In this document: positions 33,360 through 64,000 of the stretch, piece by piece
Layout: every line of letters starts with the position of its first letter
Position numbering within the stretch: the stretch's first letter is position 1
Source of the DNA: Escherichia coli
Lineage (GTDB): Bacteria > Pseudomonadota > Gammaproteobacteria > Enterobacterales > Enterobacteriaceae
Length of the DNA: 64,000 bases
Assembly: GCF_044324785.1 (NCBI RefSeq)
Contig: NZ_CP172127.1
Reading direction: 5' to 3' (one strand)
The notes under the pieces: generated by a model
Databases searched by the model: none
Told to the model about the DNA's origin: nothing
The model's input: the letters and a program-made list of their open reading frames with translations, nothing else
Position numbers and translations under genes: made by a program

Positions 33360-33428
33360 CAGTGTTTCTCCTTTCGCCCGCCAGAGTAAAAAGCAACCGT
33401 TTACGTTAATGAAACTGTCTAAACACAT

Positions 33429-33443
33429 GCTCGTGGAGTGCCA
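33429..33443 (-). promoter_or_regulatory. candidate sigma54 promoter upstream of uacT (TGGCAC-N5-GAGCA)
   Basis: Minus-strand CTGGCACTCCACGAGCA read by eye; GG and GC at correct 10-bp spacing; ~70 nt upstream of uacT ATG. Confidence 0.35.
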
Positions 33444-33794
33444 GTTTTTGCGAGGAAGGGGAGTTAGAGACAGGAATTGCGGAGGCAATCACATAATCGT
33501 GGTTAAACCACGAAAATGAGAAGAGAACCTGACAATGGAATTATCTGTAATTTTCTCATATTGATATTTCATTAATCATTCTGGCATGTCGCACTCTCGC
33601 TTTTAATCGTTTTTATCTGGATAGCGCTCTTTTGGTCGGCAATGTTGAAATAATGAAAGCGGCACAGATTGAGGGGCAATAATTTGAACTCAGTCGCAAA
33701 ATTATAATTAAAACGGTCATGCTACCTAATATATGCCCGTTTATTGCATCGCGAAATTTGAGAAGACATAACTCATTAAATGAAAGGGATGCAA

Positions 33795-37640: not shown

Positions 37641-38960
37641 TTAGTTGCGTTCGTACACCAGACGACCATCAACGTAGGTGCGGTAGATCGAACGGTCATC
37701 GCCCAACGTCATCATCACGAACAATTTGTCGACTAAAGAAACAGAGTTGTCATAGCGCAGCTGCTGTAGCGGAGTGGCGGTGGGTTCCATCACCACGAAA
37801 TCAGCCTCTTTGCCAGGTAAAAAGTTGCCAATCAAATCGTCAAGGCCCAGAGATTTCGCTCCGCCGAGCGTGGCCAGGTAAAATGCTTCATATGCCGAGA
37901 GGCGATAGCCTTGTAGTTGCAACACTTTGTAGGCTTCGTTTAGCGTTTGCAGCATGTTGAAAGTTGTTCCGGCACCGATATCCGTTCCCATGCCCACTTT
38001 GACTTTCTTCTGCCATGCTTTTTTCAAGTTGAATAAGCCGCTGCCGAGGTAAAGGTTGGAGGTCGGACAGAAAGCAATGCTGGATTTGGTTTCGCTGAGA
38101 CGATCCCACTCTTTTTCTTCGAGATGGACGCAGTGAGCAAAGACACAGTTTTTACCTGTCAGGCCATACTGGTGATAAACATCCAGATAGCCATCATGTT
38201 CAGGATAAAGTTCTTTCACCCAGGCAATTTCATCTTTGTTTTCACAGAGATGGGTATGTACCCACGTATCCGGATATTCTTCTTTCAGGCGTTGCGCCAT
38301 CGCCATCTGTTCAGGTGACGATGTTGGGGCGAAGCGTGGTGTAATGGCATATAACAGACGGCCATTTTTATGCCAGCGTTCGATCAGTTCTTTGCTTTGG
38401 TGATAGCTACTTTCCGCCGTGTCGAGCAGATAATCTGGCGCATTACGGTCCATCATCACTTTACCGGCAATCATTCGCATATTGATATGACTGGCGGCTT
38501 CAAACAACGCATCCACAGATTGTGGATGAACCGTACCAAACACCAGTGCCGTAGTCGTACCGTTACGTAAAAGCTGCTTGATGAAGAACGCCGACATTTC
38601 GCGGGCGTACTCTAAATCCTCATAACGACGTTCAGTAGGGAAGGTGTGTTTATTCAACCACTCCAGCAATTGCTCACCATAGGCTCCCACCATTTCACTT
38701 TGCGGATAATGGATATGTGTATCGACAAAGCCCGGTACTATCAGTTTGCCGCGATAGTCGCGCACGCGAATGGTGTCAGGAATTTGATGCTTTCCGTTTT
38801 CCCATTCGCCAAACCATTCCACTTTTCCCTGTTTAATAAGTAATAAACCATCCTCAATAAACCGCAGCGCAGAGGCAATCTCTTCCGGGTTATCGACCGT
38901 ACGGGTGACATCAATAAAACTGCCTCGTACCGCTTTTAACGTGTGTTCTCCTGACATCAT
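37641..38960 (-). CDS. guaD: guanine deaminase (amidohydrolase superfamily), 439 aa
   Basis: ORF 37641..39080 trimmed to MMSGEHTLKAVRGSF; metal-binding VDTHIHYPQ. Confidence 0.9.
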   Translation of the reverse strand: MMSGEHTLKAVRGSFIDVTRTVDNPEEIASALRFIEDGLLLIKQGKVEWFGEWENGKHQIPDTIRVRDYRGKLIVPGFVDTHIHYPQSEMVGAYGEQLLEWLNKHTFPTERRYEDLEYAREMSAFFIKQLLRNGTTTALVFGTVHPQSVDALFEAASHINMRMIAGKVMMDRNAPDYLLDTAESSYHQSKELIERWHKNGRLLYAITPRFAPTSSPEQMAMAQRLKEEYPDTWVHTHLCENKDEIAWVKELYPEHDGYLDVYHQYGLTGKNCVFAHCVHLEEKEWDRLSETKSSIAFCPTSNLYLGSGLFNLKKAWQKKVKVGMGTDIGAGTTFNMLQTLNEAYKVLQLQGYRLSAYEAFYLATLGGAKSLGLDDLIGNFLPGKEADFVVMEPTATPLQQLRYDNSVSLVDKLFVMMTLGDDRSIYRTYVDGRLVYERN

Positions 38961-45567: not shown

Positions 45568-48500
45568 TTACACCTCCACGCGGCCCAGCAGATAATGATG
45601 ATGCTGGTGGACATGGCTAATGATGCGGCACATATCGTTCAGCTCCGGTGGTACGTTGTTGAACTGACCTTCGCTGTCGATGTTTAACACCCAGCTTTGG
45701 TTATTCAGACGTACTCGTACCCGGCAATCTTCCACAAGGAAGCCTGGGTTGCTGCTGTTATCAAAGTCTTGCGACAGGCTGAAGACGGTGATTTTGTCTT
45801 TGTACGGTTTACCGTTCCACGGACAGAACTGAGCGCAGTTGCCGCATTCGTTACAGTAAGCGTCGAGGTGCAGCGTCTGGAAACGGTTCTGGAAGCCAGG
45901 GACCGCAATGGAGACGTTGGCGCGGTTCGGGCAGACATCCACACACTTGCTGCAAACGTAGTTACATTCAAGGCAGCGAGCAGCTTCCTGCGCGACAAAC
46001 GCATCACGATCGTCACTGTTCACCAGCGTGATAGAGATATCGCCTTTACGTTGATAGATTTCCGCCGGATTGACGTTGTTCCAGTATTTATCGTTCTGGT
46101 GGGAACGGATATTTTCCCGACTAAGGATGGCATCGGTCGCCCGACGCGCGGTTCCGACAGCAGCGACAATGGAGGATGGTCCGCGCTGTACGTCGCCGAT
46201 CATAAAGACGTCAGTCAGACGAGTTTCGCCATTATGGTCGACGTCTGGCCAGCCGTTTTTGTCCAGCGGCACGCCCATCGCATTCAGGGCTTCAGTATCC
46301 TGCTGTTCACCAATGGCGGTGATCAGGCTGTCTACATGCAGTGTTACTGTTTCGTTGGTTTCAACCGGACGGCGACGACCTTTCTCATCAGGTTCGCCAA
46401 GCGACATAACGCGCAAGGTTAAGGTGCCATCAGCATCGAAACGTTCCGGATTATTCAGGAAACGGAACTCCACGCCGTCGTGCAACGCTTCTTCATACTC
46501 TTCGCGCCATGCTGGCATCTCTTGCAGTGAACGACGGTAAACGACCGTTGCTTTTTCTACGCCTGGAACGCGTAACGCCGCACGAGCGCAGTCCATTGCC
46601 GTGTTACCCGCCCCGACAACGACCACATGTTTGCCCAGCTTGAGCGCTGTGCCCTTGTTGTATTCACGCAGGAAGGGGAGTGATTTCCAGACATTTTGGT
46701 TGTCGCCCGCCAGTTTCACACCGCTATTTTTATCAGTGCCGGTGGCAATCAGAACATAGTGGAAGCCCTGATTTTTTAACTGTTCAACGGTCAAATCGGG
46801 TGAGCAGCCATACTCAAATTTCACGCCGTGAGCGGCAACAAAATCGATATCGTGCTGAATTAACTCTGCAGGAATACGGAACTGAGGAATGATATTTTTC
46901 ACCACGCCGCCCGCATTGGCTTCGCGTTCAAACAGCGTAACCGGATGGCCCGCTCTGGCAAGGAAGTAACCTGCTGCCAGACCCGCCGGACCTGCACCAA
47001 TCACGGCAACCGGATGGCGTGAACCAGAACCGGCTGGTTTGTGCCAGCGTTGCTTATATTCATCCCAACCTTTTTCCAGCGCGACTTTTTTCAGTTCGCG
47101 GATATTCAGCGCACTGTCGTAATCCAGGCGGGTACAGTTGTATTGGCACTGGTGATCGCAAATATGACCGGTAATGGCGGGCAGGGCGTTGCGTTGGTAG
47201 ATGAGTTCCAGTGCGTCGGCATAGCGGTGTTCGCCAAGCAGACGGATGTATTCCGGAATATCCTGTTTAATGGCGCAAGCAGTAACGCACGGTGCAACGT
47301 AGCAGTCGGTCAGCGGCAGGTCTTCTGCCACTTCAATACGCTCTTCTGGCTTCCAGTGTTTCTGAGTGTATTCCATGGTTAACGCGTCTGCTGCCAGTTT
47401 GTTCAGTCGTTCGACGTCAACATGGTCAAGCCCCCAGGCGTCGGAGCCTTCCAGCTCGCGCATGCAGGCACTTAAGCGCAGATAGCCGCCAGGTTTCAGC
47501 AGGTCGGTTGCCATCGTGATAGGGCGAATACCAGTATCAAAAATATCGCGGATAGTCAGCTGACTGGCACCACCGGAATAAGAAATGGGCAGTTTGCCGT
47601 CAAAGGCGCGAGAGAGAACTGCTGCAACATTGATGGAGAGCGGGAACAGCGCACGGCCTGACATATACATCTCTTCACCAGGCAGTGCGCCTTTATTGTT
47701 GATGGTGCCGAGAGTGTTAGTCAGTTTTACGCCAAAGCCGAGTGATTTTTCTTTTGCCAGTGCCATCAGACGTTCCAGCATTTCCAGTGCTTGCGTCAGC
47801 TTGAGGTCGTGATCAAATGACTCTTCTTTTAAGCCTATGTAACCGAAACCGCAGACATCGAGGATCTCACGAACACGCGCGTACCCCAGTAAGGTCGGGT
47901 TGAGTTTCACAAAGGTATTGAGCCCTTTTTCTTCCAGCATGTAGCGGCAAATGGCTTCGATTTCATGCGGAGGACAGCCGTGCATGGTGGAGAGGGTGAC
48001 GCCCTGCACCATGCTGGTGGGGATGCGAGCGGGTAAGGCTTGCAAGCTTTCGCGTTTTTCCTGCAATCCGTGGCGGGCTAAAAATGCGTCATCCTGGAGT
48101 AATTTATTCAGCGTATCGCGATATTGAGCGAATTTCGGATGGTCAGATGCGTCCATCATATTGTCGATGAACTGTTGCATCGGCGGTTGCTTAATACCTT
48201 CGAGGTTGTAACCGACGCTCATATTAAAGATGAACGATTTACCGGAATCAGAAGGCTGGAACATCGCTTCGAGAAGGTGCAGGGCAAACCAGGCTTTGAG
48301 GTATTCATCCCAGGCTTTAAGCAGGGTAAATTCGGTGGACCATTCGGTGTTAAAGCACTCGTCTTCGGCATCAATACAGGGCTTTTCCAGCTCCAGGCGG
48401 TCAAGAATTTGGACGGTTTTTAGTTCGATGAAGCGTCCGCCAGTCAGCCAGGAAGTGACAATATTTTGCGCGAGCTGCGTGTGCGGGCCAGCGGCAGGGC

Positions 48501-48666
48501 CGACGGGAGTGGCACAGGTTTCACCGAAGACGCTAACAGTTTTACCTTTTACGGGTGAGTAAAACTGTTGCTCGGGAATACCAAAGATTGAGCGTTGTTG
48601 TTGGTATTCATCAAATATGCGCGTCAAAAGTTCCTCAAACGGAATGGGACGCATAATATCCCCCAT
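45568..48666 (-). CDS. ygfK: large Fe-S flavoprotein oxidoreductase (GltD/dihydropyrimidine-dehydrogenase-like with 4Fe-4S clusters), 1032 aa
   Basis: Dinucleotide fingerprints [28 protein letters not shown] and VVVVGAGNTAMDCARAAL; ferredoxin motifs CLECNYVCSKCVDVCP and CNECGNCAQFCP; AGGAG RBS. Confidence 0.85.
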   Translation of the reverse strand: MGDIMRPIPFEELLTRIFDEYQQQRSIFGIPEQQFYSPVKGKTVSVFGETCATPVGPAAGPHTQLAQNIVTSWLTGGRFIELKTVQILDRLELEKPCIDAEDECFNTEWSTEFTLLKAWDEYLKAWFALHLLEAMFQPSDSGKSFIFNMSVGYNLEGIKQPPMQQFIDNMMDASDHPKFAQYRDTLNKLLQDDAFLARHGLQEKRESLQALPARIPTSMVQGVTLSTMHGCPPHEIEAICRYMLEEKGLNTFVKLNPTLLGYARVREILDVCGFGYIGLKEESFDHDLKLTQALEMLERLMALAKEKSLGFGVKLTNTLGTINNKGALPGEEMYMSGRALFPLSINVAAVLSRAFDGKLPISYSGGASQLTIRDIFDTGIRPITMATDLLKPGGYLRLSACMRELEGSDAWGLDHVDVERLNKLAADALTMEYTQKHWKPEERIEVAEDLPLTDCYVAPCVTACAIKQDIPEYIRLLGEHRYADALELIYQRNALPAITGHICDHQCQYNCTRLDYDSALNIRELKKVALEKGWDEYKQRWHKPAGSGSRHPVAVIGAGPAGLAAGYFLARAGHPVTLFEREANAGGVVKNIIPQFRIPAELIQHDIDFVAAHGVKFEYGCSPDLTVEQLKNQGFHYVLIATGTDKNSGVKLAGDNQNVWKSLPFLREYNKGTALKLGKHVVVVGAGNTAMDCARAALRVPGVEKATVVYRRSLQEMPAWREEYEEALHDGVEFRFLNNPERFDADGTLTLRVMSLGEPDEKGRRRPVETNETVTLHVDSLITAIGEQQDTEALNAMGVPLDKNGWPDVDHNGETRLTDVFMIGDVQRGPSSIVAAVGTARRATDAILSRENIRSHQNDKYWNNVNPAEIYQRKGDISITLVNSDDRDAFVAQEAARCLECNYVCSKCVDVCPNRANVSIAVPGFQNRFQTLHLDAYCNECGNCAQFCPWNGKPYKDKITVFSLSQDFDNSSNPGFLVEDCRVRVRLNNQSWVLNIDSEGQFNNVPPELNDMCRIISHVHQHHHYLLGRVEV

Positions 48667-48748
48667 AACCCTCTCCTTAGCTTATACAGATATCATTGAG
48701 TGACCGGTGTTGAGAAATCCGGTGGTTTAGGGGGATAGAGCAACAATC

Positions 48749-48764
48749 GCACCACTCTTGCCAG
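48749..48764 (-). promoter_or_regulatory. candidate sigma54 promoter upstream of ygfK (CTGGCAAG-N4-GTGC)
   Basis: Minus-strand CTGGCAAGAGTGGTGCG read by eye; GG/GC spacing correct; ~85 nt upstream of ygfK ATG. Confidence 0.35.
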
Positions 48765-48817
48765 GTTTGGCGGGAAATATAAAAAAATGTGAGGCGGCTC
48801 GAAACTTAGGAGCTTTT

Positions 48818-48833
48818 TGTGAATGAACTCACA
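48818..48833. promoter_or_regulatory. perfect CRP core site TGTGA-N6-TCACA
   Basis: tttTGTGAatgaacTCACAgg read directly in ygfK upstream region. Confidence 0.5.
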
Positions 48834-48987
48834 GGTGCCAAATGAGAATTAAAATCACTCCTGAAAATTATTATTGCCAGCCCATTTATCACTTTTTCTC
48901 TTTTCTCAAAATCAGTGATTCCTTATCATTATGATAAAGAGAACTGGAAGGGTTAAATATTTGAACGCAATCGTTTAACTACGTTTT

Positions 48988-49566
48988 CTAAATTTCAGTA
49001 TACCTTTTTTTCGCTGTAATAAAGTCGTCCGGAGTATCAATATCTAAAATTATTTCTGCATTTTCTATTTCGACGGAATAATGTTCTCCCATAAGGAGTG
49101 CCTGACGCATATTGGTGATATTGGGACGCTGGATTGCCTGCATCAGGCATGGCTTTGACACTAAAATCGGATGGCCGGGAATGCCATTATGGAGTGGCAG
49201 TATTGCGCCATCATTTCGTAACGACCAGATTTTCCTAAAAATATCGATGGTGAGGGTAGGCATGTCACCGTGGGTGAGAAAACAATATTCTGTTTGTACC
49301 GCGGGTACTGCGGCCTTTACTGATGTTAGTAAACCCTGTGCATAATCTGGGTTATGGATAATAGTGATATTGCTCTGGTTCGCATAACGCTTGTGCAGTT
49401 CATTACCACGATAGCCGGTGACTAAAATAATTCGGCTACAAAACTGCAACGCATTTTTGATACTTGTATCAAGAATTGTTCCCTGTTGCCAGGGTAACAT
49501 CATTTTCCATTGCCCCATTCTTGATGATAATCCGGCAGCGGTAATTATACAGTCGATGGCTGACAT
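48988..49566 (-). CDS. mocA: molybdenum cofactor cytidylyltransferase (MobA-like nucleotidyltransferase), 192 aa
   Basis: N-terminal ITAAGLSSRMG nucleotidyltransferase motif; full ORF. Confidence 0.85.
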   Translation of the reverse strand: MSAIDCIITAAGLSSRMGQWKMMLPWQQGTILDTSIKNALQFCSRIILVTGYRGNELHKRYANQSNITIIHNPDYAQGLLTSVKAAVPAVQTEYCFLTHGDMPTLTIDIFRKIWSLRNDGAILPLHNGIPGHPILVSKPCLMQAIQRPNITNMRQALLMGEHYSVEIENAEIILDIDTPDDFITAKKRYTEI

Positions 49567-49668: not shown

Positions 49669-50439
49669 GTGAAAAGTATAGTTGACCCATCGGCATTATT
49701 CATTGATTTAGGCGCGCAGAAACGTCCCACTGTGATTTCTGTTGTTGGGGCTGGGGGGAAAACCAGCTTGCTTTTTTGGCTGGCAGAACTGATCCAGGCT
49801 AGCGGCAGGCGTGTGTTAATCACTACGACGACACATATGTTTATGCCAACGTCTCACTGGCCCGTGGTTTTCTGTCGTGATCCCGCCATGCTTCCTCATG
49901 CGTCTCTTACATCCCCCATTTCATTTTGTTTTCACAGCTGGAAAGCGAACCAGGGAAAAGTGCAGGGATTTATGCCAGAAGCGATTGATGCACTGGTGCA
50001 ACGACCAGAGTGTGACGTAATTCTCATTGAGGCAGATGGCTCGCGTGGAATGCCGTTAAAAGCGCCTGATGAGCACGAACCTTGCATACCCAAAAGCAGT
50101 TGCTGCGTGATTGCTGTGATGGGAGGACATATTTTGGGCGCGAAAGTGAGCACAGAAAATGTCCATCGCTGGTCGCAGTTTGCTGATATTACCGGGTTAA
50201 CACCTGATGCAACCTTGCAACTGAGCGATCTCGTTGCGCTGGTTCGCCACCCTCAGGGCGCATTTAAAAACGTACCGCAAGGTTGTCGGCGAGTCTGGTT
50301 CATTAACCGTTTTTCTCAATGTGAGAATGCGATTGCGCAAAGCGAGCTCCTTCAACCGCTGCAACAACACGACGTAGAGGCAATCTGGCTGGGCGATATA
50401 CAAGAACATCCTGCAATCGCGCGCAGATTTGTGAATTAG
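49669..50439 (+). CDS. yqeC: P-loop protein YqeC (selenium-dependent molybdenum hydroxylase accessory family), 256 aa
   Basis: GTG start; Walker-A-like VVGAGGKTSLL. Confidence 0.8.
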   Translation: MKSIVDPSALFIDLGAQKRPTVISVVGAGGKTSLLFWLAELIQASGRRVLITTTTHMFMPTSHWPVVFCRDPAMLPHASLTSPISFCFHSWKANQGKVQGFMPEAIDALVQRPECDVILIEADGSRGMPLKAPDEHEPCIPKSSCCVIAVMGGHILGAKVSTENVHRWSQFADITGLTPDATLQLSDLVALVRHPQGAFKNVPQGCRRVWFINRFSQCENAIAQSELLQPLQQHDVEAIWLGDIQEHPAIARRFVN

Positions 50440-58284: not shown

Positions 58285-58760
58285 AAAGTCCCGGTAGTGG
58301 AATGACAGGCAAAGAGGTTTATTTCACTGTGACTTGCCAAAAGTGATTGGTCTTTTCACAGCTATACCTGGGACTAACAATAACTATGCCAGAATTATCC
58401 AAGCGGCTGCAAAAGACTAATTTGACGGGTAATGTGTGGGGTTGATCACAAATTGATGCCAGCTTCTGGTTGTTTGTAAAATACGAAAACGTTTGGCTTT
58501 TTTTATCGCGTTATTTATTTGCTGCTAAGTATCAGAAATAAGATAAAGGGGCAGGTTATCCCTCGTCAGTTTGATAAACTCACCGCCGTAATTCTCATAT
58601 TGATATAGAAATGTGATATCTCTTCCATAATTTCATTAGAAAGTGATAAAAATCTTATGTTTTTATCAAAGCCAATTTCGTCTGAGTTAATATCATCATG
58701 ATCTGTGAACCATCAACGTCTTCAATGATCGACTTTTAAGTAAGTCTGGAAGGTAAAGCT

Positions 58761-61943: not shown

Positions 61944-64000
61944 TCAAATCAATCCTGCCAGATGGAACTCTTCATATAACCGTTTTGGCGTCAGCGGCAG
62001 TGTATTGATTGCAACACCGGTAGCCATCTTCACCGCGTTACGAATAGCAGCGGCAACAGGAATTATGGGTGGCTCACCCAGTGACTTATGTCCGTATGCG
62101 GATTGCGGCTCATTGATTTCGACGAACGCGCTTTCCAGTTGTGGCAGATCCGGCATGGTCGGCATTTTGTAATCCAGCAGATTGGGGTTACGGACCACGC
62201 CGCTTTTCGCATCAATGATCATCTCTTCAAATAGCGCCCAGCCAATGCCCATTCCCATTCCGCCGTGTACCTGACCTTCTGCCAGTAGCGGATTAAGAAT
62301 ATGGCCCGAATCATGAACGTTGAGGATGCGGTTGATGGTGACTTTGCACAGCGCAATATCGATCGTCAGATCAACAAAGGTACAGCCAAATGCCGGTGGG
62401 TTAGTGGTGGTTTTGATGGAGCTTTCAGCAGAGAGCTGCCCGCCGCGTTCAGGGTGGTAGAAAGCGTCCATCGCCAAATCTTTTAACGACATTAACGGCT
62501 CTTCCGGTCGTTCAATCAGCACGATATGGCCTTTTATCAGGGTCAGATTCATCGCTGACTGATGTAGCATGACTGCGGCGTGAGCGATGATTTTCTCTTT
62601 TAATAACAGTGCCGCACTGCGCAGCGCAGGCGCGGCAACATAGCTCTGGCGTGAGGCAAATGCGCCGGGATCGAACGGCGTAACGTCGGTATCTTGTGTT
62701 GAAATAACGCGAACGTCGCTGACCGGAACCCCCACGGTTTCTGCCACCATTTGCGAGAAGACAGTGTCGGCACCCTGACCGATTTCTGTCGCGCCGCTTT
62801 GCACGTTGATGGTTCCATCCTGATTCATCAACAGGCGCGCGCCTGCTATTTCTACGCCGACAGGCCAGGTGTTAGAGGTGTAGCTAAAACAGGCGACGCC
62901 AACGCCGCGGCGTAAATTGCCTTGCTGGTTCTGGCACTCTGCACGGCGTTTTTCCCATTCAAAGATTTTCCGGCCTTTTTCAAGACACTCCGGCAACCCT
63001 GCGCTGTAAATACGTTTGCCTGTGAGCGGATTAGCATCTCCTTCGCGGGCGGCGTTGCGTAAACGAATTTCAACAGGATCAATACCTAACGCTGTCGCGG
63101 CGTCATCAAGCATAGACTCAACGGCAAATACGACTTGTGGCGCGCCATAACCACGCATCGCACCAGCCGAGGGGAGGTTGGTATAGCAGGTCTTTGAACT
63201 GTAAGCGTAGGCACAACGAGGATAAAGGTAAGCGACTTTATTCCCCCCCGCAGAAGCGATGGAGTGCCCGTGAGATGCATAAGCGCCGGTGTTAGACAGA
63301 ACATCCAGACTATAACCTTTCAATGTTCCGTCGCGGTTCACGCCCATTTGCCCGTCAATAGTGAAAGCGTGGCGGGTTCGGGTTGCGAGGAAACATTCTT
63401 CACGACTAAGGGAAACTTTCACCGGAATGCCGCCAAGCTTGCTGGTCAGGAATGCCGCCATTGGCTCTTCCAGAACATCCTGTTTATTACCAAAACCGCC
63501 ACCGACAAACGGTTTGATAACTCGTACGCATGACCAGGGAATATCCAGCGCCTGACCAACGACGCGGCGAACAATGTGCGGGATCTGGGTGCTGGAAACG
63601 ATGGTAATTCGAGAGTCATCCTCCATCCATGCCAGCGATGTCACGCTTTCCATGTGACAATGTTGAATGACCGGCGTCTGATAGTGCCCCTGTACCTGGT
63701 AGTCGGCGGCATCGATTGTTTGTTGGACATTACCCGTCGACATCGTGCTTTGTTTTAGTAAATTGCCGCCGTTATGGATTGGTGCAGCGTCATCTGCCAG
63801 CGCCGCTTCTGGCGTGGTGATAACGGGTAATTCTTGCCACTCAATGCTGACCAATTGCGCCGCTTTTTCTGCCGTGAGTTCATCACGGGCCACGACGATG
63901 GCAACGGCGTCACCATGATGACGAACATGGCGAGTTAGCAGTGCGCGATCGGCGGTATCGCGCTTGTTTTCGTCAAGTGTCCAGGCATGCCCAGCTGTAG
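61944..64000 (-). CDS. xdhA: xanthine dehydrogenase molybdopterin-binding subunit; 3-prime ~685 codons only, the start lies beyond the window end
   Basis: Frame stays open upstream of the ORF-track start through to position 64000; Mo-hydroxylase family sequence. Confidence 0.85.
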   Translation of the reverse strand, partial: TAGHAWTLDENKRDTADRALLTRHVRHHGDAVAIVVARDELTAEKAAQLVSIEWQELPVITTPEAALADDAAPIHNGGNLLKQSTMSTGNVQQTIDAADYQVQGHYQTPVIQHCHMESVTSLAWMEDDSRITIVSSTQIPHIVRRVVGQALDIPWSCVRVIKPFVGGGFGNKQDVLEEPMAAFLTSKLGGIPVKVSLSREECFLATRTRHAFTIDGQMGVNRDGTLKGYSLDVLSNTGAYASHGHSIASAGGNKVAYLYPRCAYAYSSKTCYTNLPSAGAMRGYGAPQVVFAVESMLDDAATALGIDPVEIRLRNAAREGDANPLTGKRIYSAGLPECLEKGRKIFEWEKRRAECQNQQGNLRRGVGVACFSYTSNTWPVGVEIAGARLLMNQDGTINVQSGATEIGQGADTVFSQMVAETVGVPVSDVRVISTQDTDVTPFDPGAFASRQSYVAAPALRSAALLLKEKIIAHAAVMLHQSAMNLTLIKGHIVLIERPEEPLMSLKDLAMDAFYHPERGGQLSAESSIKTTTNPPAFGCTFVDLTIDIALCKVTINRILNVHDSGHILNPLLAEGQVHGGMGMGIGWALFEEMIIDAKSGVVRNPNLLDYKMPTMPDLPQLESAFVEINEPQSAYGHKSLGEPPIIPVAAAIRNAVKMATGVAINTLPLTPKRLYEEFHLAGLI

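Follow-up and report, generated by a model that had tools for sequence, protein, structure and literature searches.

The ygfK-ssnA-ygfM-xdhD operon of Escherichia coli covers early steps of reductive urate degradation, a recently described pathway of gut bacteria. The pathway is the subject of engineering aimed at lowering urate, for which repression by glucose poses a practical difficulty; in wild-type E. coli, urate degradation is repressed by glucose, and an earlier preprint by Liu et al. described a glucose effect on urate use as possible but complex. In front of the operon, a perfect CRP core is located upstream of a promoter bound by sigma-54. The effects of CRP documented for sigma-54 promoters are nearly all negative (dctA, glnAp2, glnHp2, ast, nif and Pu).

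The ygfK promoter region

All positions refer to the window, which is the whole stretch of 64,000 nucleotides that was analysed. A 501-bp query from the ygfK operon region (48600-49100) is 100% identical to E. coli strain N3 and is present with an identity of at least 95% in 5,167 of 5,426 complete genomes. The elements of the region are listed here from the gene outwards, with negative positions counted from the inferred transcription start.

45568..48666, minus strand: ygfK, with its ATG at 48666 (list of open reading frames and RefSeq annotation of strain N3)
48728, minus strand: inferred ygfK transcription start, 12 nt past the C of the -12 GC; the leader is then 62 nt long
48739..48755, minus strand: ygfK sigma-54 promoter (-24/-12) GTGGTGCGATTGTTGCT, the ChIP-seq motif (window 48755..48739)
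48775..48787, minus strand: A/T-rich tract TTTTTTTATATTT, -59..-47, just 3´ of box 2
48788..48803, no strand assigned: CRP box 2, half-consensus, TTCGAGCCGCCTCACA, centre -67.5, the second box in Shimada 2011
48818..48833, no strand assigned: CRP box 1, the perfect core TGTGAATGAACTCACA (ygfK sense strand TGTGAGTTCATTCACA), an exact TGTGA-N6-TCACA
48843..48859, minus strand: conserved block AGTGATTTTAATTCTCA, a candidate YgeV half-site, -131..-115, directly 5´ of box 1
48901..48911, minus strand: conserved block TTTTGAGAAAA, -183..-173, in which TGAGAA is the reverse complement of TTCTCA
48923..48937, no strand assigned: palindrome TTATCATAATGATAA, a candidate YgeV enhancer (UAS), -209..-195
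48988-49566, minus strand: mocA (ygfJ) (annotation)

According to the annotation, the spacer between mocA (ygfJ) and ygfK comprises 321 bp and contains the perfect CRP core, and ygfK is followed by ssnA, ygfM and xdhD, the remaining genes of the operon. The YgfK protein has a role in reductive urate degradation. The spacer and leader were also considered as possible sources of a structured RNA, which was rejected, the sole match (mir-184, E = 0.61) being below threshold and due to chance. The xdhA gene of the window (61944-64000) is a frameshifted pseudogene in the annotation of strain N3; the identity between N3 and the window given above covers the 501-bp query.

In Bonocora 2015 (PMC4591121), a sigma-54 ChIP-seq study with glycerol-grown cells, peak OS31 at ygfK is 26-fold above threshold and has the motif GTGGTGCGATTGTTGCT. 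The -24 element of this motif, TGGTGC, is non-consensus, yet the peak is strong (26). A second candidate, CTGGCAAGAGTGGTGCG (48764..48748), overlaps with it. Scored with a position weight matrix (PWM) derived from 41 further motifs of the ChIP-seq study, GTGGTGCGATTGTTGCT reached 12.1 and CTGGCAAGAGTGGTGCG 10.6. In a genome scan with one genome per species, which yielded 80 ygfK loci, the promoter was recognisable in Enterobacterales, Aeromonas, Vibrionaceae and others; outside Escherichia the pattern (C/G)TGGTG(C/T)GA(T/A)TGTTGCT is retained and the candidate CTGGCAAGAGTGGTGCG disappears. A footprint alignment of 32 Enterobacterales promoters (-140..+5), one for each of 32 species, gave a mean column identity of 0.90 for the sigma-54 17-mer and of 0.51-0.57 for the intervening DNA. 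Because of its lower PWM score and its lack of conservation outside Escherichia, CTGGCAAGAGTGGTGCG was rejected as -24/-12 element. It would have placed box 1 at -88.5. The spacing of about 88 bp given in the preliminary description has to be revised accordingly, since the promoter with support from both conservation and ChIP-seq gives -97.5.

The distance values reported by Bonocora 2015 are 62 for ygfK and 73 for glnA (PMC4591121). The leader that follows from our start at 48728 has the same 62 nt. The 73 nt of glnA are presumably the mapped glnAp2 leader. Since the value for ygfK matches and that for glnA corresponds to this leader, our numbering should be comparable with that of Bonocora. 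The ygfK start is inferred and unmapped, and positions are therefore uncertain by about 1-2 bp; relative to it, box 1 is centred at -97.5 and box 2 at -67.5.

A parallel had also been drawn between the spacing at ygfK and that of a palindrome upstream of uacT. This parallel is not supported; the -88 candidate at ygfK is absent outside Escherichia. The palindrome in question is TCGTGGTTAAACCACGA; relative to TGGCACTCCACGAGCA, a candidate sigma-54 promoter of uacT, it is located at -88 (33497-33513 and 33428-33443 for the two elements). The PWM score of this candidate promoter is 5.3, lower than that of all 41 training sites, and the candidate is absent from the first part of the intergenic peak table (PMC4591121).

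The pair of CRP boxes

The preliminary description had reported a perfect CRP core at 48818-48833, and an exact TGTGA-N6-TCACA is indeed found there, the only one in the 64-kb window. Dinucleotide-preserving shuffles yielded on average 0.04 such cores per window, with at least one match in 4 of 100 shuffles. The centre of box 1, at 48825.5, is 159.5 bp upstream of the ygfK ATG.

Box 1 is not a new site but an already published cAMP-CRP binding sequence. Shimada et al. 2011 (PMC3105977) carried out genomic SELEX with purified CRP and cAMP, and nothing was enriched when cAMP was left out. The ygfJ>ygfK spacer ranked third by clone frequency among the 29 cloned loci, with 9 of 160 clones, and the authors took the clone number as tracking affinity (PMC3105977). 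In their supplementary tables, the entry ygfJ> >ygfK-ssnA contains TGTGAGTTCATTCACA, which is identical to the window sequence read on the other strand, and as second CRP box of this spacer TGTGAGGCGGCTCGAA, which equals window positions 48788-48803 (PMC3105977). The predicted CRP targets listed there include ygfK, ygeV<>ygeW and ygfT<>ygfU (PMC3105977).

In the Enterobacterales alignment, box 1 has no mismatch in 17 of the 32 species and one mismatch in nine. Its half-sites are kept while the N6 spacer varies in 26 of the 32 enterobacterial species, and the mean column identity is 0.85 and 0.92 for the half-sites and 0.57 for the spacer of the box. Conservation of the half-sites together with variation of the spacer between species indicates that box 1 is more than a chance match. 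K. oxytoca, Cedecea neteri, Enterobacter genomosp. O and Raoultella terrigena have lost the box. A comparison of four divergent strains of E. coli showed no SNP of the mocA-ygfK spacer within either box, in the promoter or in the upstream blocks. The earlier assignment of the core as a CRP site is thus borne out by the SELEX listing of TGTGAGTTCATTCACA and by the dyad-shaped phylogenetic footprint. With its published in vitro binding (PMC3105977), we lean towards reading box 1 as a high-affinity cAMP-CRP operator, jointly with the role as part of a positioned co-activator that is discussed below.

All 32 species have box 2, in the form TT(A/C)GA-N6-TCAC(A/G), and in none does it reach the consensus. 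The mean column identity is 0.92 and 0.94 for its half-sites and 0.54 for its spacer. In all 30 species in which both boxes are recognisable, their centres are exactly 30 bp apart, and the distance between the boxes and the -24/-12 elements shifts by only 0-1 bp in Enterobacteriaceae. Because box 2 never comes near the consensus and keeps TT(A/C)GA, it may need cooperativity or bind another protein. The weak half (48799-48803, TT(A/C)GA on the ygfK sense strand) shows no drift towards TGTGA in any of the 32 species, and the invariant T at position 2 of the box is the base that separates half-sites of the FNR type (TTGA) from those of the CRP type (GTGA). Selection that keeps the site weak or cooperative could account for this, as could a second protein. 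The tract directly downstream of box 2 (-59..-47) is A/T-rich in most species, its sequence itself being unconserved; it is possibly contacted by the alpha-CTD or forms curved DNA.

Elements shared within the urate/purine cluster

Boxes resembling the CRP consensus (CRP-like boxes, with at most two mismatches) were searched from -260 to +20 of each start; the background is 33 such sites in 64 kb. Each of the six cluster sigma-54 promoters, one of them the candidate uacT promoter, has such a box in a narrow range of positions.

48788-48803: CRP-like box of the ygfK promoter, centre -67.5
near 1172-1187 of L002: CRP-like box of the xdhA promoter, centre -67.5
33683-33698: CRP-like box of the ygfT promoter, centre -68.5
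33478-33493: CRP-like box of the candidate uacT promoter, centre -68.5
58435-58450: CRP-like box of the ygeW promoter, centre -77.5
50011-50026: CRP-like box of the validated internal yqeC promoter, which drives yqeB, centre -78.5

The sole extra box between -260 and +20 of these six promoters is the perfect site of ygfK at -97.5. As a control we used 21 other K-12 sigma-54 promoters from the ChIP-seq data. In all 21, the interval between -79 and -67 is free of box centres, and just three have any CRP-like box in -260..+20. The comparison of 6/6 with 0/21 corresponds to a hypergeometric p of about 3e-6 (about 1.5e-5 for 5/5 against 0/21 if the uacT candidate is omitted), values that are indicative only because the interval was picked after inspection of the data. 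The box positions are 10 or 30 bp apart, which suggests placement on one helix face. According to Bonocora 2015 (PMC4591121), the intragenic sigma-54 promoter in yqeC was shown to drive yqeB; its sequence, TGAGCACGAACCTTGCA (50070-50086, plus strand), is unchanged in the window.

A second group of elements is located further upstream. Conservation of the palindrome at 48923-48937, in the form T(A/C)TCA-N3-TGA(T/G)A, extends to Aeromonas and Erwinia, and that of the block at 48901-48911, as TTTTGAGAAAT or TTTTGATAA, across Enterobacterales. In the block at 48843-48859 the mean column identity is 0.89 and ATTCTCA is nearly invariant. The palindrome T(A/C)TCA-N3-TGA(T/G)A occurs five times in the window, with 0.15 copies expected. 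Its match in yqeC (50314-50326) was discarded as upstream enhancer, since it is located 3´ of the internal sigma-54 promoter. The 15-mer TTCTCATATTGATAT is found as an exact copy in the uacT-ygfT spacer (33553-33567) and in the ygeW-ygeV spacer (58592-58606), with three mismatches at 48923-48937 and in two further three-mismatch copies upstream of xdhA (L002 1236-1271). In total the window contains nine matches to this 15-mer, compared to 1.3 expected. The family formed by TTCTCATATTGATAT and T(A/C)TCA-N3-TGA(T/G)A is therefore the strongest candidate for the DNA box of YgeV (also named IsrR), the sigma-54 activator of the cluster. In the literature searched, we found neither a description of the YgeV DNA target nor an occurrence of the candidate strings.

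The 10-mer TAATTCTCAT has just three copies in the 64 kb, located upstream of the ygfK promoter (48842-48851, minus strand), 52 bp upstream of PyqeC (50018-50027, plus strand) and in the ygeW-ygeV spacer (58589-58598, plus strand). Each copy is near a cluster sigma-54 promoter; the ygfK copy abuts box 1, and the yqeC copy overlaps the CRP-like box TGTGACGTAATTCTCA. In the ygeW-ygeV spacer, a CRP-like box with two mismatches, TGTGATATCTCTTCCA (58612-58627), is located 5 bp past the 15-mer and some 140 bp 5´ of the start of ygeV, a layout reminiscent of the one that the TAATTCTCA block forms with box 1 of ygfK.

Possible action of CRP at the ygfK promoter

The closed complex of sigma-54 polymerase needs an enhancer-bound ATPase, which reaches it by DNA looping, often with the help of IHF. 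At ygfK, the rigid pair of CRP boxes is located between the candidate YgeV enhancer elements (at about -120, -178 and -202) and the sigma-54 promoter. If glucose is absent, cAMP-CRP would fill both boxes and the bound CRP would bend the DNA where an IHF site is present in many sigma-54 promoters. In addition, CRP may touch the alpha-CTD of the sigma-54 holoenzyme, possibly via the A/T tract at -59..-47. By the bend or by the alpha-CTD contact, the enhancer-bound ATPase YgeV would reach the closed complex more easily, and with CRP aiding YgeV contact in this way the urate/purine operon would be switched on only by the specific signal together with carbon limitation. The CRP pair at -97.5/-67.5 would then be a positioned co-activator of the ygfK sigma-54 promoter, a reading to which we give a slight preference. 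We infer that CRP most likely acts at ygfK in vivo, with a positive sign and by the bending or alpha-CTD route. The CRP pair probably links the ygfK operon to carbon supply, and catabolite control of the operon is plausible.

The activator must come from the side of the DNA that is opposite the holoenzyme, and CRP at -50.5/-51.5 of glnAp2 occupies the holoenzyme face and represses (Mao et al. 2007). The distance to -50.5 is 47 bp (4.5 turns) for box 1 and 17 bp (1.6 turns) for box 2, with the start inferred and the geometry borrowed from glnAp2. Both boxes should thus be nearer to the face opposite the holoenzyme. Against this, box 2 is out of phase with -50.5 by just about 0.6 turn. Bends on this opposite face reportedly stimulate, as is said of the glnAp2 bend-position series of Huo et al. 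from 2006. The IHF consensus WATCAANNNNTTR (at most one mismatch) was not found in -260..-1 of E. coli ygfK, and no conserved one was found in nine other species. What favours the co-activator reading is therefore the lack of an IHF consensus, the helix face, the repression by glucose, the growth on glycerol of the cells used for ChIP-seq and the precedent of prpBCDE, whose sigma-54 promoter is reported to be under direct positive control by CRP.

Full-text literature searches yielded neither crp/cya expression data nor reporter data for ygfK. In the iModulon paper and the carbon atlas we found no direct in vivo evidence of ygfK being controlled by CRP, the Reg-seq preprint merely lists ygfK, and the UPEC alpha-ketoglutarate paper describes no case of CRP at a sigma-54 promoter. 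The effect of glucose on urate use could also be exerted at other promoters, such as via the CRP site in the ygeV-ygeW spacer, or by ygeV expression or uptake. When the ygeV-ygeW spacer alone was swapped for constitutive promoters, glucose repression was relieved. This means that CRP at ygfK is not indispensable, or that it was bypassed by over-production of YgeV.

CRP might also act in the opposite sense, as an anti-activator whose bend or alpha-CTD contact keeps YgeV off the closed complex and lowers ygfK transcription. Published CRP effects at sigma-54 promoters being mostly inhibitory would fit to this, as would the location of the boxes between enhancer and promoter, where a bend can help or hinder looping. 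However, glucose, and thus low cAMP, represses urate degradation and does not stimulate it, and ygfK belongs to a catabolic operon. Relative to the repressing -50.5, box 1 is out of phase by half a helical turn, and it would be odd if a repressing CRP position were kept at all six promoters of a catabolic cluster; we regard this negative role as unlikely. That the boxes serve a sigma-70 promoter instead, of Class I or II for ygfK or for an antisense transcript, could be suspected from a TATATT hexamer 3´ of box 2 in E. coli and from a weak sigma-70-like match that a simple scan detected on the opposite strand, overlapping box 1. But TATATT is unconserved and would bring the boxes to positions near -56.5 and -26.5, not -41.5/-61.5, promoter-like sites are not in excess (2, compared to 1.3 in shuffles), and the conserved distance is that to the -24/-12 elements. 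We consider this reading very unlikely, and a sigma-70 promoter served by the boxes was rejected on the grounds of the unconserved -10 and the wrong spacing.

Box 1 might have no regulatory role at all and be a high-affinity CRP site that arose as a chance match or is part of a chromosomal CRP reservoir. Many CRP sites from SELEX and ChIP are without a measured effect on transcription, and direct ygfK expression data were not found in the literature. In neutral DNA, however, one would expect neither dyad-shaped conservation across genera nor a constant 30-bp pairing of boxes nor a constant distance from them to the promoter, and the chance expectation for a perfect core is 0.04 per window, so that a site without a role is highly improbable here. 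The preliminary description had offered yet another alternative, in which the inverted repeat is an enhancer site; box 1 would then be the YgeV enhancer (UAS) and CRP binding in vitro would be incidental. Box 1 is about 100 bp 5´ of the sigma-54 promoter, a typical enhancer distance, and the candidate YgeV half-sites TCTCA and TATCA are only one or two bases away from TCACA. The position at -97.5 is within the typical UAS range (about 80-200 bp 5´ of -24/-12), but this range is open to CRP boxes as well, so that the position does not decide between the two readings. Moreover, the fragment was strongly selected by purified cAMP-CRP. The motif of the cluster is a palindrome with N3 spacing that is kept to Aeromonas, where box 1 is absent, and four species lose box 1 yet keep the promoter and T(A/C)TCA-N3-TGA(T/G)A. 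Since the motif common to the cluster promoters is the TTCTCATATTGATAT family and not TGTGA-N6-TCACA, the enhancer reading of box 1 is unsupported. We hold it to be extremely improbable, and the alternative raised at the outset gives way to T(A/C)TCA-N3-TGA(T/G)A as the motif that the cluster promoters share.

A CRP pair acting as co-activator of ygfK would have its closest counterpart in prpBCDE of E. coli and Salmonella (PrpR, IHF, CRP), which is likewise a catabolic sigma-54 operon with a dedicated enhancer-binding activator. prpBCDE is reported to be directly CRP-dependent and is thus subject to catabolite repression. However, prpBCDE needs IHF, whereas ygfK is without an IHF consensus, and no CRP-like box (at most two mismatches) is present in -260..+20 of prpBCDE, whereas ygfK has two at fixed positions. 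At glnAp2, glnHp2, R. meliloti dctA and Pu, CRP acts on the sigma-54 closed complex via bending and via AR1/alpha-CTD, and the same route is proposed for ygfK. At these promoters, CRP inhibits from a weak or absent site (at -51.5 in glnAp2) on the holoenzyme face. In contrast, ygfK has a conserved consensus site, with positions at -97.5 and -67.5, in front of a glucose-repressed catabolic operon.

Sigma-54 promoters assisted by IHF, such as nifH and Pu, have a sharp bender between enhancer and -24/-12, and by prediction this also applies to ygfK. Here the predicted bender is CRP and not IHF, thus the bend would depend on cAMP. In Class I CRP-dependent sigma-70 promoters, tandem CRP sites are located in helical register 5´ of the polymerase. 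They share with ygfK a perfect TGTGA-N6-TCACA operator and tandem boxes, but ygfK uses sigma-54 polymerase and an ATPase activator and has no conserved sigma-70 -10/-35.

Beyond the published site, the analysis adds the fixed pairing of the boxes, the positioning of boxes across the cluster and the candidate YgeV box, which are leads and not proofs. The CRP pair and the cluster-wide boxes offer a testable cis-regulatory explanation for glucose repression, and ygfK may be a rare example of a positive, position-dependent action of CRP at sigma-54 promoters. With more reserve, we propose that the whole urate/purine cluster might form a regulon that has cAMP-CRP as an integral, stereospecific co-activator of its sigma-54 promoters and in which a box at -67.5/-77.5 (plus -97.5 at ygfK) replaces IHF, making YgeV contact cAMP-dependent. 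If this is true, a Class-I-like rule would apply to CRP at sigma-54 promoters, the opposite of the inhibitory effects described so far, and T(A/C)TCA-N3-TGA(T/G)A would define the YgeV regulon.

The candidate YgeV box also provides a handle on the DNA targeting of YgeV. One sequence that differs from the 15-mer by a single mismatch, TTCGCATATTGATAT (38474-38488), is located within the coding sequence of guaD, 5´ of ghxQ, and may be an internal regulatory site.
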